64,000 bases of DNA from Lachnoclostridium sp. An14 (lineage in GTDB: Bacteria; Bacillota; Clostridia; Lachnospirales; Lachnospiraceae): positions 11,906-75,905 of the forward strand of contig NZ_NFLE01000013.1 of the NCBI RefSeq assembly GCF_002160755.1. Reading direction: 5' to 3'. The notes beneath the pieces are model-generated. The model had not been told where the DNA came from, did no database searches, and was given only the letters and a program-made list of their open reading frames with translations. Made by a program: the position numbers and the translations under genes. Below are positions 35,015 through 41,552 of this stretch, in pieces; position 1 is the first letter of the stretch, and each line of letters begins with the position of its first letter.

Positions 35015-35034
35015 TTTTGAAAGCGCTTTCAAAA
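35015..35034. promoter_or_regulatory. Palindromic LacI-family/cre-like operator TTTTGAAAGCGCTTTCAAAA upstream of the LacI-family gene
   Basis: Perfect palindrome with core TGAAAGCGCTTTCA (fits the cre consensus WTGNAANCGNWNNCW); ~20 bp upstream of the RBS. Confidence 0.5.
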
Positions 35035-35055
35035 TACACAAAAGGAGCAGAATCA

Positions 35056-36084
35056 ATGGCAGCATCCATCTACGATGTGGCGAAACGGGCGGGAGTATCC
35101 ATCTCCACCGTGTCCAGAATTTTAAACAACAGTGCAAATGTAAATGAAAAAAAGGCGGAGGCCGTCCGGGAGGCTATGGAGTATTACCAGTTTGTTCCCA
35201 ACCAGTTCGGGCGGGGGCTGGCAAAGCAGCAGTCGGAGATGGTTGGCGTCTACTTTCCTTATCAGCCGGATTCCATGTTTGAGAACGCCTACACCTTAGA
35301 GCTGTTGAAGGGGATTGAGAAGGTCCTGTCCGCCTGCGGCTACAGTATGGTGCTGATCGGCGAAAATCTGGACTATAAGAGCCGGAAGGCCTCTGAGCCT
35401 AAGTTTCTGGAATTTATCCGCCAGAAAAAGATCGACGGGCTCATCCTCAGCGGCGTATCCGACGAGGATCAGCTGAAACGGATCTGGCAGTGCATGGATG
35501 AAGATTACCCCATTGTGTACGTGGGACGAAAATTCCACGAGCGGGGGATGAACGTCTACGCCCAGCTGGAGACCTACATGGTGGAAATGCTCCAGGTGCT
35601 CTATGAAAAGGGGCATCGCCGGATTCTGTTTTACACCTCTTCCCTGCATCGGATCTATTTGGACAGCATTCTGAAACGGGCGAAGGAAACGATGGGAGAT
35701 CTGAATATCTTTCCGGTGGAAGGGGCTGATCAGGACTATCCCAGGGAGATGGTGCTGGCCGATTTAAAGGAGTATGTGGTGAAGAAGGGCTGTACGGCCA
35801 TCTGCACCTCTTTGATGGGCACAGCCCAGGGCATTTTAAACAGCTGCACGGAACTGAAACTTTCCGTGCCGGATCAGGTGTCCATTCTGGCGGTAGAGCA
35901 CCGTCTGGGGGCGGGAAGATTATTCTATCCTCAAATTTCAGCTTTTTACGTCCCAGCTCAGGATATGGGGCAGGGAGCGGCGGAGCTTTTGGTACGCCAC
36001 ATGGAAAAACGGGAGTTAAAGGAGACCTCCAGGGAATACATTACGAAATTTATAGAACGGGAGTCAATAAGGGCCATGGTGTAA
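35056..36084 (+). CDS. LacI-family transcriptional regulator
   Basis: MAASIYDVAKRAGVSISTVSRILNN… HTH_LacI plus a periplasmic-binding-fold effector domain. Start at ATG 35056 (RBS AAGGAG); the ORF is open from 35017. Confidence 0.9.
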   Translation: MAASIYDVAKRAGVSISTVSRILNNSANVNEKKAEAVREAMEYYQFVPNQFGRGLAKQQSEMVGVYFPYQPDSMFENAYTLELLKGIEKVLSACGYSMVLIGENLDYKSRKASEPKFLEFIRQKKIDGLILSGVSDEDQLKRIWQCMDEDYPIVYVGRKFHERGMNVYAQLETYMVEMLQVLYEKGHRRILFYTSSLHRIYLDSILKRAKETMGDLNIFPVEGADQDYPREMVLADLKEYVVKKGCTAICTSLMGTAQGILNSCTELKLSVPDQVSILAVEHRLGAGRLFYPQISAFYVPAQDMGQGAAELLVRHMEKRELKETSREYITKFIERESIRAMV

Positions 36085-36114
36085 CAGCCGGAAACCCTTT
36101 TGATTATCCCATTT

Positions 36115-39222: not shown

Positions 39223-40133
39223 GAAGGTTTCTGGCGGTAGACATTGGCGGCACGGCGGTAAAATGGGCGGTGATGACCGAGGAGTTTCAGATCGGGGACC
39301 GGGGAGAATTCCCCACCCCCTACACCGACGCCCAGGATCTGGCCGGCCGCATCGCCGATCTCTGTAAAGAACGGCAGGGACAGCTTTCCGGTGTGGGCAT
39401 CAGCGTGCCGGGGACGCTGCAGGATGAGCCGGACGGCATCATTGACGGGGGAGGCGTCCTCCGCTACCTGCACCAGGTGCCCTTTGGGAAATTGGTGCGG
39501 GAACAAAGCGCCCTTCCCTGTTTCGTGGAAAACGACGGGAAAAGCTGCGCCCTGGGAGAATACGTGGCAGGCGCCTTAAAGGGCTGCCGCGTGGGCGTGG
39601 TCATGGTACTGGGAACGGGAGTGGGAGGCGGAATCGTCATCGACGGCCAGGTGTTTAAGGGCGTTCACGCCTTTGCTGGAGAATTCAGCTATTTATTTTG
39701 CCGGCCGGGGACCCGCCTGGGCTTTGGGGAGGATATTTTCGGATTTCAGGGAGGCTGGAAAAACGGCCTGTTATCTCTGATGCTAAAGAAAAAAGGGCTG
39801 CCGGCAGATACAAAGATGGACGGCCGGGAAATGTTCCGGCTGATTAACGGAGGAGATCAGGAGGGCATCGCTGCTCTGGAGGAGTATTGTCAGGGCATCG
39901 CTGTCCAGATTCACAATCTGCAGGCGATCCTGGATCCGGAGCTCTTTGCCATCGGCGGCGGCATCAGCAATCAGCCGGTACTCATGGAAAAGCTTGAGAA
40001 GGCCCTGGACGCCCTTTACGAGGGCACTGTGTTTACCCAGTTTCCCATCCCGAAGGTGGTCCGCTGTAAAAACGGCAGCGATGCCAACCTGCTGGGAGCC
40101 GTTTACCAGTGTATACAGAGAATGGAGAGGTGA
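39219..40133 (+). CDS. ROK-family sugar kinase (BglK-like beta-glucoside kinase / glucokinase)
   Basis: MRRFLAVDIGGTAVKWAVM… (ATP-binding DxGGT); ROK signature …VMVLGTGVGGGIVIDGQVFKG…; its start overlaps the GPH stop. Confidence 0.85.
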   Translation: MRRFLAVDIGGTAVKWAVMTEEFQIGDRGEFPTPYTDAQDLAGRIADLCKERQGQLSGVGISVPGTLQDEPDGIIDGGGVLRYLHQVPFGKLVREQSALPCFVENDGKSCALGEYVAGALKGCRVGVVMVLGTGVGGGIVIDGQVFKGVHAFAGEFSYLFCRPGTRLGFGEDIFGFQGGWKNGLLSLMLKKKGLPADTKMDGREMFRLINGGDQEGIAALEEYCQGIAVQIHNLQAILDPELFAIGGGISNQPVLMEKLEKALDALYEGTVFTQFPIPKVVRCKNGSDANLLGAVYQCIQRMER

Positions 40134-40136
40134 GAG

Positions 40137-41552
40137 ATGAGCGTTTATTTTCCGAAAAATTTCCTCTGGGGCGGGGCTACAGCCGCCAACCAGTATGAAG
40201 GCGCCTACCGGGAGGATGGCAAGGGCCTTTCCGTCCAGGATGTGATGCCGCGGGGCATTATGGCCCCGCCTACGGCGGAGCCCACGGAGGACAATCTGAA
40301 ACTTCAGGGGATTGATTTTTACCACAGATACCGGGAGGACATCCGCCTGTTTGCGGAGATGGGCTTTCGGGTTTACCGAACCAGCATCGCCTGGAGCCGC
40401 ATTTTCCCCAATGGGGACGAGGAGGAGCCCAACGAAAAGGGGCTGGAGTTTTACGACCGGGTGTTTGACGAATGCCTGAAATACGGGATCCAGCCCATGG
40501 TGACCATCAGCCACTATGAGACGCCCCTCCATCTGGCCAGGACCTACGATGGCTGGGTGGACCGGAGAATGATCGGTTTTTACTGCCGGTACGCCGAGAC
40601 CATTTTCCGCCGTTACCGGGGAAAGGTGAAATACTGGCTCACCTTCAACGAGATCAACAGTGTGCTGGAGGCCCCGTTTATGAGCGGCGGCATCGCCACT
40701 CCGAAGGAGGAGCTGACGGACGGGCAGCTTTATCAGGCCATTCACCACGAGCTGGTGGCCAGTGCCATGGCCACGAAGATCGGCCATGAGATCGACCCGG
40801 AAAACAAGATCGGCTGCATGGTGTTAGGGATGCCCACCTATCCCCTCACTCCCAACCCGGAGGACGTGTGGTATAACCTTCAGGAAGACCGGAAAAATCT
40901 GATGTTCAGCGACGTCCACGTCCGCGGCTACTATCCCGGATATATGAAACGGATGCTGCGGGAAAAAGGGGTGGAGATCGCCATGGAGCCAGGGGACGAG
41001 GAGATGCTGCGGGAACACACGGTGGACTACATCGGGTTCAGCTACTACTCCAGCCTCTGCCAGAGCGCCGACCCAGAAGCAGAGGCAGCAGGGGGAAACC
41101 TCATGGGCGGCTGCAAAAATCCCTACTTAAAAAAGACAGACTGGGGCTGGGCCATTGATCCCAAGGGCCTGCGCATCCTGTTAAACACCCTCTACGACCG
41201 CTACCAGAAACCGCTGTTCATCGTGGAAAACGGCCTGGGGGCCGCGGACCTGCTGGTGGACAGCCCGGACGGTCCCACAGTGGAGGATGACTACCGGATC
41301 CAGTATCTGAAGGAACACCTGCTGGAGGTGAGTCAGGCCATCCAGGACGGCGTGGAGCTGTGGGGCTACACCACCTGGGGCTGCATTGACCTGGTGAGCG
41401 CGTCCACGGCGGAGATGAAAAAGCGCTACGGTTTCATCTACGTGGATCGGAACAACGACGGCACGGGCACCCTGGCCCGTTACCGGAAAAAGAGCTTTTT
41501 CTGGTACAAAAACGTGATTGAGACAAACGGACAGTGTCTGGAAGAATCATAA
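40137..41552 (+). CDS. GH1 6-phospho-beta-glucosidase / beta-glucosidase
   Basis: 471 aa; …[19 protein letters not shown]…; catalytic acid/base …LTFNEIN…; nucleophile …FIVENGLG…; C-terminal …[16 protein letters not shown]… is the phospho-sugar-binding type. Confidence 0.9.

Follow-up and report, generated by a model that had tools for sequence, protein, structure and literature searches.

The window (the whole 64-kb stretch of Lachnoclostridium sp. An14 DNA analysed here) contains at positions 35015-41552 five genes on the + strand, encoding a LacI-family regulator, a sulfatase, a GPH symporter, a ROK kinase and a GH1 glycosidase (Table 1). The genes had been described in an earlier note on this DNA, and we recovered all five at the same coordinates, with profile hits that matched the family identities given there; gene calls made independently on identical metagenome contigs gave the same five products. 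The unit is flanked on the left by a terminator, the hairpin of which ends the upstream gene for a membrane-anchored GH3 (NagZ-like) protein, and on the right by a strong hairpin for which 0/200 shuffles folded equally well and which probably marks the 3' end of the transcription unit, although it lacks a canonical T-run. Within the unit the stop codon of GPH and the start codon of ROK overlap (ATGA) and ROK and GH1 are separated by 3 nt. Neither a terminator nor any significant structure was seen in the 130-nt spacer between the sulfatase and GPH genes (z = 0.09), and a scan of the region 5' of the sulfatase gave no convincing promoter candidate. We place the true start of the LacI gene at the ATG at 35056, where there is an AAAGGAG ribosome-binding site; a TTG at 35017 overlaps the operator and was rejected as start.

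Table 1. Features of the sulfatase locus and their positions in the window.
Feature	Position	Strand	Remarks
Terminator-like hairpin with T-run	34914..34960	+	20-bp stem, then TTTGTT; left boundary of unit
Sigma-70-like promoter candidate for regulator gene	34977..35005	+	TTGTTA-17-TATGAT, extended TG; 9/12 matches, by consensus only
Operator O1 (predicted), perfect palindrome TGAAAGCGCTTTCA	35018..35031	.	12 nt 3' of -10 hexamer, 24 nt 5' of LacI ATG
LacI/GalR-family transcription regulator, 342 aa	35056..36084	+	PF00356 and PF13377
Operator O2 (predicted), TGAAAGCGCTTTCT, one mismatch	36116..36129	.	Tandem with O3, 13-nt offset
Operator O3 (predicted), perfect palindrome	36129..36142	.	89 nt 5' of sulfatase ATG
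Cys-type (formylglycine) S1 sulfatase, cytoplasmic, 498 aa	36231..37727	+	WP_087221989.1; PF00884, 104.9 bits
FGly motif C49-M-P-A-R53	36375-36389		Invariant across 40 homologs
Glycoside-pentoside-hexuronide (GPH):cation symporter, 454 aa	37858..39222	+	TIGR00792, 387.6 bits vs cut-off 231
ROK-family sugar kinase, 304 aa	39219..40133	+	PF00480; no HTH domain
GH1 6-phospho-beta-glucosidase, 471 aa	40137..41552	+	WP_087221993.1; NCBIfam 6-phospho-beta-glucosidase subfamilies, 652.9 vs 639 and 651.5 vs 623
Hairpin, GC-rich 15-bp	41564..41606	+	12 nt past GH1 stop; -41.3 kcal/mol, z = -4.0

Three perfect copies of a palindrome had been reported around the regulator gene; three sites are present, but only O1 and O3 are perfect. 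O2 and O3 have one base in common. When TGAAAGCGCTTTCA was searched for at up to two mismatches, 3 matches were found in the window compared to 0.22 expected, 0/100 shuffles reached three, and the rest of the window held no further copies. Most related loci have an O1-equivalent site 16-40 nt 5' of the LacI start, a distance that reaches about 116 nt in a few loci, and a tandem pair of the O2/O3 type with identical offset is found in L001, L006, L008 and L009. In about 25 related loci the position of the operator is conserved and the palindrome co-varies with the regulator, and the symmetric operator variants among related loci are TGAAAACGTTTTCA, TGTAAGCGCTTACA and TAAAAGCGCTTTTA; the regulator is 56-64% identical to those in orthologous loci. 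This conservation and co-variation support the earlier suggestion that the palindromes would mediate both autoregulation and control of the operon. That the palindrome may double as a CcpA cre is likewise consistent with our search, as TGAAAGCGCTTTCA is a perfect match to the cre consensus and the 64 kb held no further good one. The regulator itself was rejected as CcpA (115 bits vs an equivalog cut-off of 442).

The first core beta-strand of the sulfatase stands at the very N-terminus, leaving no room for a signal peptide and indicating a cytoplasmic enzyme, and its FGly motif bears out the description of a Cys-type sulfatase with a CMPAR sequence. Residues D9, C49, P51, R53, D94, H95, H97, H202, D283, H284 and K296 are invariant among 40 homologs. 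The protein has the S1 sulfatase fold. With Foldseek every S1 subfamily matched at a TM of about 0.6 and 14-19% identity, and neither this search nor NCBIfam yielded a close relative that is solved or named, all NCBIfam hits being far under their cut-offs. Given that the canonical Lys-x-His motif is absent from this family, with an invariant S-D-H-Q-H in its place, the chemistry may be atypical.

The GPH symporter is 86-88% identical to the GPH proteins of the sulfatase loci L001 and L089. The GH1 enzyme carries the catalytic motifs NEIN (residue 171) and ENGLG (residue 364) and the phosphate-pocket motif S..KKRYG (residues 421-432), and it matched the S. pneumoniae 6-P-beta-glucosidase 4ipl with E = 3e-217. 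Since a 6-P-beta-glucosidase needs a PTS or a kinase and the sole transporter of the locus is a symporter, phosphorylation would have to be supplied by the ROK protein, for which we infer the role of a beta-glucoside 6-kinase. In this protein the motif DIGGT stands at residue 8 and a Cys zinc motif is absent; its two best PDB matches were 2gup (8e-33) and Listeria BglK (4htl, 9e-24). The earlier description as BglK-like holds only as a resemblance: a score of 116.7 bits, far under the BglK equivalog cut-off of 550, shows that it is not a BglK ortholog. Besides the window itself, a ROK homolog is located directly 5' of a 6-P-type GH1 gene in 4 of the 8 homolog contexts examined, and the transporters in such contexts are of four unrelated kinds (GPH, CUT2 ABC, Opp-type ABC and MFS). 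Some ROK proteins of 56-61% identity occur in unrelated contexts.

Relatives of the sulfatase are encoded at 80 species-level loci, for which neighbouring genes are given as raw counts: LacI at 43/80, GPH at 38/80, anSME at 22/80, BglB-like GH3 at 18/80, a second sulfatase (only about 20% identical) at 15/80, TauE/SafE at 12/80, ROK at 6/80 and permuted GH3 at 3/80. LacI-sulfatase-GPH forms a conserved core across many Bacillota, and many of the closest loci consist of this bare trio. The gene after the core varies and is repeatedly a beta-glucosidase, whether a BglB-like GH3 (directly after GPH at 10 loci; the H. hathewayi GH3 matched solved beta-glucosidases with E = 3e-242), a non-phospho GH1, or ROK together with a 6-phospho GH1, and a beta-glucosidase lies nearby in only 22 of the 80 loci by raw count. 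Only one sulfatase-linked GH1 has no ROK beside it (L035), and its motif is of the non-phospho type. Orthologous proteins occur in the order LacI-Sulf-Sulf2-GPH-ROK-GH1 at L089 and ABC-SulfA-SulfB-ROK-GH1 at L094, where an ABC transporter replaces GPH, and at L061 a phosphoglucose isomerase is encoded beside GH3-Sulf-ROK, which points to glucose as the released sugar. The loci of aerobic bacilli have FGE instead of anSME, plus ChrA-like transporters. In agreement with the earlier note, tblastn searches of the window with the anSME sequences of two related loci found no maturating enzyme, and a TauE sequence gave no match to an anion exporter there either.

The tight spacing, the lack of an intervening terminator and the recurring sulfatase/beta-glucosidase neighbourhoods support the view, already expressed in the earlier note, that sulfatase and beta-glucoside enzymes form a single functional unit. 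Reading the biochemical steps, their order, the effector and the substrate from the observed families of the genes, the way they are ordered and coupled, the statistics and conservation of the operators, and the associations seen in other genomes, we consider it rather probable that these genes form an operon, induced by its substrate, through which a small sulfated beta-D-glucoside is taken up and broken down in the cytoplasm; its linkage could be O or S. The intact sulfated glycoside would be imported by the GPH symporter and its sulfate removed by the formylglycine sulfatase, activated by an anaerobic sulfatase maturase presumably encoded elsewhere in the genome. The ROK kinase would then phosphorylate the glucosyl O6, and the GH1 enzyme would release glucose-6-phosphate and the aglycone. 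Bound at O1 the LacI-family protein would repress its own gene, and bound at the tandem O2/O3 the catabolic genes, until the imported compound or a product relieves the repression; the three sites could serve CcpA too.

Glucosinolates had been put forward as a possible substrate; no tool result was specific to them, and we retain them as a doubtful, minority candidate. Imported glucosinolates would in that case become desulfo-glucosinolates, to be phosphorylated and cleaved, yielding glucose-6-P together with a thiohydroximate whose decay gives a nitrile and not a toxic isothiocyanate, a chemistry compatible with each enzyme class. Among the hosts of close relatives are chicken, rabbit, mouse and human, whose diets can include Brassica material. 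Glucosinolates are desulfated by insect FGly sulfatases (PMC8212129), their turnover by bacteria has been linked to 6-P-beta-glucosidases and a GH3 enzyme, with a kinase step proposed (PMC6767122; PMC8660893), and desulfo-glucosinolates are converted to nitriles by bacterial beta-glucosidases, the gut bacterial sulfatase being still unidentified (PMC8492924; PMC8468500). However, a glucosinolate carries a single sulfate, whereas second sulfatases recur among the 80 loci and bacilli have a third; no nitrile- or isothiocyanate-handling gene lies near the locus; and relatives of 55-60% identity occur in Treponema and spirochaete metagenome bins, halophilic and rhizosphere bacilli, Victivallales and Chloroflexota. 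Sulfated glucosides or oligosaccharides as a broader class fit the multiple-sulfatase loci and the soil and spirochaete relatives at least as well. It is unlikely that two unrelated modules lie side by side, LacI-sulfatase-GPH acting on a sulfated non-glucoside and ROK-GH1 being a generic cassette (for ordinary beta-glucosides such as cellobiose, arbutin or salicin) inserted downstream by chance. Most of the closest loci do have the trio without any glycosidase, and ROK-GH1 behaves like a mobile two-gene cassette that occurs with several transporters and without a sulfatase (L098, L099), but here the cassette lacks a separate transporter, the ROK start codon overlaps the stop codon of GPH with no promoter or terminator between, GH3 or GH1 beta-glucosidases fill the same position in other lineages, and a sulfatase and a second sulfatase recur together with ROK and GH1 behind the ABC transporter of L094.

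Known systems for sulfated host sugars reportedly consist of a cytoplasmic sulfatase, a transporter, an anSME and a regulator, a layout that the present one resembles. Salvage of a sulfated sugar from mucin or glycosaminoglycans, such as GlcNAc-6-sulfate or a sulfated galactoside, in parallel with the Bifidobacterium breve ats2 cluster, would also agree with the top PDB sequence match of the sulfatase, a GlcNAc-6-sulfatase (5g2v, 6e-24, partial), with sulfatase-ROK pairs beside monosaccharide-type ABC transporters in some loci, and with a pneumococcal island in which a ROK regulator is encoded along with sulfatase, anSME and TauE (PMC3283741, PMC3302838). Against it, the associated hydrolases are BglB-like GH3, BGL-type GH1 and 6-P-beta-glucosidase with no hexosaminidase or galactosidase, L061 holds the isomerase, relatives are found in soil bacilli and Foldseek gave no preference for the GlcNAc-6-sulfatase subfamily, making host-glycan salvage improbable. 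We regard it as highly improbable that the enzyme is not a sulfate esterase but a promiscuous hydrolase of the alkaline-phosphatase superfamily (like phosphonate-monoester hydrolases/PehA) acting on a phosphorylated or phosphonylated glycoside: PehA is its best NCBIfam match, phosphonate monoester hydrolases are among its top sequence and fold matches and the S1 Lys-x-His is replaced, but these matches are all far under cut-offs, and in relatives the neighbouring genes encode exporters of the sulfur-oxyanion type (TauE/SafE, ChrA-like) and dedicated sulfatase maturases scoring above the anSME equivalog cut-off.

The sulfated beta-glucoside operon proposed here resembles the route of BglK and BglA-type GH1 in Klebsiella pneumoniae and Listeria (PDB 4htl, 4ipl) in that an HTH-less ROK gene lies directly 5' of a GH1 with a 6-phosphate pocket and a non-PTS transporter provides the unphosphorylated glycoside. 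It differs in that the ROK protein is not a BglK ortholog and in that sulfatase and GPH symporter genes are joined to the route and placed under LacI-type control, a combination not known from BglK systems. The ats2 cluster of B. breve UCC2003 is reportedly a glycosulfatase cluster for GlcNAc-6-sulfate, and it would share with the present locus a cytoplasmic, anSME-activated Cys-type sulfatase (activation being proposed here) clustered with a dedicated transporter and repressor for a small sulfated sugar. In An14, however, the genes indicate a beta-glucoside and not an amino-sugar monosaccharide as the class of substrate, the unit includes glycoside cleavage (ROK and GH1, or GH3 in relatives) and anSME is not adjacent. 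The Streptococcus pneumoniae island SPH1922-1930 likewise couples a cytoplasmic sulfatase with a glycoside-type transporter; it encodes a ROK/MarR regulator, a Lac-family PTS, the sulfatase, its maturase and TauE, and the sulfatase and PTS genes are de-repressed in the ROK mutant (PMC3283741, PMC3302838). Since uptake there is by PTS no kinase is needed, its ROK is a regulator whereas here ROK is the kinase and the regulator is LacI-type, and no glycosidase has been described for that island. The insect glucosinolate sulfatases (Plutella GSS and Bemisia tabaci BtGSS; PMC8212129) and the bacterial PTS/6-P-beta-glucosidase routes for glucosinolates (E. coli O157:H7 bglA/ascB and Companilactobacillus farciminis; PMC6767122, PMC8660893) each have FGly-sulfatase or 6-phospho-beta-glucosidase chemistry on a sulfated beta-thioglucoside. 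The likeness to the insect enzymes is one of chemistry, and the link to glucosinolates here is purely inferential; the two chemistries combined on glucosinolates would give nitriles. Unlike the operon proposed here, no system is known to join desulfation and the 6-phospho-beta-glucosidase step in one operon.

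The five genes of the locus (35015-41552), coding for a LacI/GalR-family regulator, a sulfatase, a GPH:cation symporter, a ROK protein and a GH1 enzyme, probably serve the uptake, desulfation, phosphorylation and cleavage of a sulfated beta-glucoside under control of the LacI protein, as read from their sequences. The five genes lie on the plus strand, and the gene inventory and coordinates of the earlier note were correct, given that the family models and the gene calls agreed; at least 21 metagenome contigs with an identical sulfatase gene had been annotated independently, with the same five products. 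The sulfatase and the GH1 protein are identical to WP_087221989.1 and WP_087221993.1, respectively, of Lachnoclostridium sp. An14, to whose assembly the proteins OUQ17846 and OUQ17848 belong.

Positions of the genes, predicted operators and boundary hairpins of the locus
Feature	Position	Strand	Evidence
Terminator-like hairpin, left boundary of the five-gene locus	34914-34960		
Predicted operator O1	35018-35031		perfect copy of TGAAAGCGCTTTCA
LacI/GalR-family regulator	35056-36084	+	PF00356 and PF13377
Predicted operator O2	36116-36129		one mismatch (…TTCT)
Predicted operator O3	36129-36142		perfect copy of TGAAAGCGCTTTCA; one base in common with O2
Sulfatase	36231-37727	+	PF00884, 104.9 bits (cut-off 25)
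GPH:cation symporter	37858-39222	+	TIGR00792, 387.6 bits (cut-off 231.35)
ROK protein	39219-40133	+	PF00480
GH1 6-phospho-beta-glucosidase	40137-41552	+	above the cut-offs of two NCBIfam subfamily models; 4ipl (S. pneumoniae), E = 3e-217
Strong hairpin, right boundary	41564-41606		-41.3 kcal/mol, z = -4.0

The GPH and ROK genes overlap (ATGA) and the ROK and GH1 genes are 3 nt apart. A terminator or attenuator was rejected both for the 130-nt spacer between the sulfatase and GPH genes, which is unstructured (no terminator and no significant structure), and for the tandem operator O2/O3, where an RNA hairpin forms but the region lacks both significant folding (z = -1.75) and a U-run. A riboswitch or leader was also rejected, as an Rfam scan of positions 33000-43500 gave only a sub-threshold ylbH match; this ylbH-leader match at 33631-33736 lies within a GH3 coding region (26 bits compared with a gathering threshold of 50, E = 0.032) and was taken as chance. 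There was no clear signal of horizontal transfer (GC content 0.55 in the locus and 0.58 in the flanks), and a conserved plsX-acpP-rnc-smc housekeeping block (41716-47552) lies directly downstream of the inserted operon. The upstream GH3 gene (33438-34913) codes for a NagZ-like beta-N-acetylhexosaminidase (199.9 bits, with a cut-off of 207) that is membrane-anchored and has a long N-terminal region rich in Arg, Gly and Ser. It was rejected as an operon member because a strong terminator lies between and the gene is not kept beside close orthologs; since this terminator sets it apart from the operon, a function in the cell wall is probable. Cytoplasmic GH3 N-domain proteins do come after GPH in a few distant loci (L064).

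The sulfatase is predicted to be a formylglycine-dependent S1 enzyme of the Cys type that hydrolyses sulfate esters. The PF00884 match covers residues 4-343 and the maturation motif, including the downstream LTG-R-type residues, reads C49-M-P-A-R53-R-E-L-H-T-G-R60, where C49, P51, R53, L56, G59 and R60 were invariant among 40 homologs. Invariant in the 40 homologs were also D9, H202, D283-H284 and K296, and of these D9, D283-H284 and K296 align with the matching region of 5g2v and 4upk and are the predicted metal-binding Asp/His residues and C-terminal Lys of S1 sulfatases. Given that the chain opens at the first core beta-strand and carries the C49 motif, the enzyme is predicted to be cytoplasmic and of the Cys type. 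The canonical Lys-x-His pair of GKxH is absent: GKWH of 5g2v aligns with S93-D94-H95-Q96-H97 (36507-36521), which is invariant across the sulfatase family, with the His present and the Lys missing. The S-D-H-Q-H in place of G-K-x-H hints at an atypical sulfate-binding site, and the active site is possibly somewhat atypical. The best PDB match by phmmer (6e-24) covered part of the chain only, and the partial matches were to a GlcNAc-6-sulfatase, phosphonate monoester hydrolases and a choline sulfatase, with no close solved structure. When the AlphaFold2 model (pLDDT 84.6, pTM 0.90) was compared with the PDB using Foldseek, all S1 subfamilies matched about equally (TM about 0.6, 14-19% identity). 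Homology of the sulfatase therefore cannot give its substrate. To our knowledge, hardly any cytoplasmic sulfatase from gut Bacillota has been characterised.

The symporter matches TIGR00792 over residues 14-447 of 454 and PF13347 at 2e-92. In the ROK protein the PF00480 match spans residues 5-296 of 304, the ATP motif DIGGT is at residue 8 and no HTH match indicative of a DNA-binding domain was found. The description of this protein as BglK-like in the earlier note is supported by genomic context and architecture but not by the BglK equivalog NF042998, which is its top NCBIfam match but scores 116.7 bits compared with a cut-off of 550, barely above ROK glucokinase (110.8). The top PDB matches were a pneumococcal ROK protein and the Listeria beta-glucoside kinase. 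By context this putative kinase would act like BglK. For the GH1 enzyme the two subfamily models passed were PRK09593 (652.9 bits, cut-off 639) and PRK09852 (651.5 bits, cut-off 623), the catalytic glutamates are present (acid/base in N-E-I-N at residue 171, nucleophile in E-N-G-L-G at residue 364) and a 12-residue stretch with the phosphate-pocket motif S..KKRYG aligns with SMSTAQLSKRYG of 4ipl. We take S...K-x-Y to be the 6-phosphate pocket and NFEW...RFG to be the non-phospho form of GH1. The motif follows the presence of ROK, with S..KRYG in the GH1 proteins that have a ROK partner and NFEW..RFG in the one that has none, in the Mediterraneibacter locus L035.

A ROK protein, a 6-phospho-type GH1 and a non-PTS transporter were found together in the window and in four related loci. 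The ROK homolog of L089 (73% identity) is part of the order LacI-Sulf-Sulf2-GPH-ROK-GH1, where Sulf2 is a second sulfatase next to the first, and that of L094 (62% identity) is part of CUT2-ABC-SulfA-SulfB-ROK-GH1, where all four enzymes have orthologs in the GPH-type loci (identities of 55% for SulfA, 48-50% for SulfB to Sulf2, 61% for ROK and 81% for GH1). Distant ROK homologs precede a 6-phospho-type GH1 without any sulfatase in L098 (1-10339), with an Opp-type ABC system, a GFO/IDH/MocA oxidoreductase and two SnoaL_4 proteins ahead of ROK-GH1, and in L099 (2924-8402), with an MFS transporter and an apiosidase-like protein ahead of it; these two resemble additional routes by which plant glycosides would be used without a PTS. 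No GH1 adjoins the ROK homologs of four other contexts (P0007, P0010, P0013 and P0018, 56-61% identity), and a metagenome scan with the window ROK gave no confirmed relative. This kinase subfamily has yet another partner in L096 and L097 (6001-8356), where the gene of a 56% identical ROK homolog, preceded by an Opp-type ABC transporter, overlaps that of a BD-FAE-type esterase.

When each species was represented by one genome, a scan gave relatives of the sulfatase in at least 590 stretches, of which the best 80 (55-84% identity) were kept; the window proteins were mapped onto these 80 loci and the neighbours of the sulfatase were clustered and then annotated. At distances of up to about 7-8 kb from the sulfatase, these best 80 loci have orthologs of LacI in 43 and of GPH in 38, a radical-SAM/SPASM maturase (anSME) in 22, a two-domain GH3 in 18, a second, about 20% identical sulfatase in 15, a TauE/SafE transporter in 12, a second type of ROK in six and a circularly permuted GH3 in three. 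LacI-Sulf-GPH is the conserved core, and maturases and anion exporters accompany the sulfatase family. GPH is directly followed by GH3 in 10/80 of the best loci, and the GH3 of Hungatella hathewayi matches solved cytoplasmic beta-glucosidases at E = 3e-242. In L035 a non-phospho BGL-type GH1 comes after the sulfatase and in the Solobacterium locus L061 the gene order is phosphoglucose isomerase, GH3, sulfatase and ROK kinase. GH3, BGL-type GH1 and ROK plus 6-phospho-GH1 are thus three non-homologous solutions for beta-glucoside cleavage that are found at the same place beside this sulfatase family.

In L010 (uncultured Roseburia) the circularly permuted GH3 after GPH is one 854-aa ORF, and in L036 (Roseburia inulinivorans DSM 16841, 13024-15586) it is present as two ORFs, which match residues 1-442 and 477-854 of the L010 protein at 92-97% identity; the gene may be naturally split or a pseudogene, or the draft assembly may be at fault. 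The second ROK type, 33-36% identical to the window ROK, directly follows the sulfatase in L044, L045, L061 and L062, and next to it come genes for a histidine kinase and an AraC-type response regulator and then a CUT2 ABC transporter of the monosaccharide type; the substrate of this variant layout may be a sulfated monosaccharide or a glycoside of very small size. For three loci with the sulfatase amid housekeeping genes (L032, L033 and L039) the neighbour annotation was uninformative.

As the earlier note had stated, no anSME is present in the 64-kb window (tblastn with two anSME queries gave no match). When the anSME of H. hathewayi was used to search for homologs and the clusters of ten NCBI-sourced matches were looked up, no An14-labelled protein came up. 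The H. hathewayi maturase (locus L001, 16931-18055), the only one scored, is above the anSME equivalog cut-off (450.5 compared with 441). In loci of aerobic bacilli FGE replaces anSME and ChrA-like transporters are found. The orthologous LacI-sulfatase-GPH loci of Metabacillus and Paenibacillus (L049, L058, L068 and L073) have a maturase of the FGE type (PF03781) and not a radical-SAM anSME, and some of them have a third sulfatase; L073 also has further genes of GH3 type, together with two ChrA-like 'chromate transporter' genes, the products of which might export sulfate.

The regulator consists of an HTH domain (PF00356, residues 4-49) and a periplasmic-binding-protein-like effector domain (PF13377/PF00532), and since it scores 115.2 bits with the CcpA model TIGR01481 (cut-off 442) it is not CcpA. 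Three perfect palindromes had been proposed; the three sites are there, but one of them carries a mismatch. Only 0.22 matches would be expected where three were found, and in 100 shuffles this number was never reached. O1 lies just 3' of a promoter-like TTGTTA-17-TATGAT and 24 nt 5' of the regulator ATG, and the end of the O2/O3 tandem is 89 nt from the sulfatase ATG. A similar site is present 5' of the regulator in about 25 related loci (mostly at 16-40 nt, in a few up to about 116 nt), with one or two sites 50-110 nt 5' of the sulfatase, or of GPH if the order differs, and tandem operators at a 13-nt offset are kept in L001, L006, L008 and L009. The sites vary symmetrically by lineage (TGAAAACGTTTTCA and TGTAAGCGCTTACA, with TAAAAGCGCTTTTA in bacilli). 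A cognate dimer operator is expected to change in this symmetric way, in step with the regulator gene, and the 14-bp CG-centred palindrome is thus the predicted operator of the LacI regulator near its own and its target promoters. Together with the conserved positions of the sites, this bears out the proposed autoregulation and operon control at the level of sequence comparison. O1 and O3 fit the cre consensus TGWAANCGNTNWCA with no mismatch, and given that the clostridial variants fit it, whereas the bacillar TAAAAGCGCTTTTA does not, the operators may double as cre sites for CcpA. No convincing promoter was found 5' of the sulfatase, and read-through from the regulator promoter is therefore possible.

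In the proposed pathway the intact sulfated beta-glucoside would be imported by the GPH symporter, the sulfate would be taken off by the matured sulfatase, O6 of the glucosyl unit would be phosphorylated by the ROK kinase and the GH1 enzyme would free glucose-6-phosphate and the aglycone, with the LacI protein repressing via O1 and O2/O3. In lineages with GH3 or BGL-type GH1 the last two steps would merge into direct hydrolysis, and in relatives TauE or ChrA-type exporters would presumably carry the sulfate out of the cell. A sulfate on the glucosyl residue must be removed before either kind of cleavage; with the sulfate on the aglycone the order of steps would be less constrained.

We know of no bacterial reference family for glucosinolate desulfation. 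The idea that this sulfatase family is the glucosinolate sulfatase of gut bacteria, which together with a cytoplasmic beta-glucosidase step (GH3, or ROK plus 6-phospho-GH1) would feed the glucose of glucosinolates to Lachnospiraceae while the aglycone would go to nitriles and not to isothiocyanates, fits the chemistry: bacterial beta-glucosidases convert desulfo-glucosinolates to nitriles (PMC8492924, PMC8468500), 6-phospho-beta-glucosidases, along with one GH3 enzyme, have been linked to glucosinolate turnover in bacteria, for which a kinase step was proposed (PMC6767122), and according to reviews the bacterial sulfatase has still not been found (PMC8492924, PMC8468500, PMC6767122). We nevertheless consider glucosinolates, which the earlier note had named as possible substrates, unlikely, given that no result of the present analysis is specific to them, that a second and a third sulfatase are frequent, which suggests substrates of a broader class or with several sulfates, and that relatives in soil bacilli, Treponema/spirochaete bins, Victivallales and Chloroflexota also point to a broader class. 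If it were true, the family would supply the missing enzyme of the route from glucosinolate via desulfo-glucosinolate to nitrile in the nutrition literature (PMC8492924, PMC8468500, PMC6767122) and explain in part why persons differ in how much isothiocyanate and how much nitrile they obtain from Brassica foods. Sulfates of host-derived amino sugars are disfavoured as substrates because the associated hydrolases are all beta-glucosidase types.

The family is broad among species-representative genomes and has a clear genomic logic, with a dedicated regulator, symporter, maturase and anion exporter and an interchangeable beta-glucosidase step. Identification of the substrate would extend the known nutrients of butyrate-producing Clostridia by a new class, sulfated glycosides from the diet or the environment, and give a first physiological role for a kinase-dependent 6-phospho-beta-glucosidase route after desulfation. 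Related loci are present in the type strains H. hathewayi DSM 13479 and R. inulinivorans DSM 16841, and with the isolate Lachnoclostridium sp. An14, whose proteins are identical to those of the window, cultured hosts are at hand and the idea is directly testable.

The ats2 locus of B. breve is reportedly an FGly sulfatase utilisation cluster. Clusters of this type, ats2 and the pneumococcal island (PMC3283741, PMC3302838), are of the same kind as parts of the present locus, and the ROK-GH1 part matches the known BglK/6-phospho-beta-glucosidase route. Full-text literature searches gave no description of a fusion of a sulfatase cluster with a BglK-type route or of this sulfatase family and returned only the pneumococcal island (PMC3283741, PMC3302838) and the reviews that call the glucosinolate sulfatase unknown. 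The parts are thus of known kinds, and what appears to be new is the combination of an FGly sulfatase cluster with a kinase-dependent 6-phospho-beta-glucosidase route.
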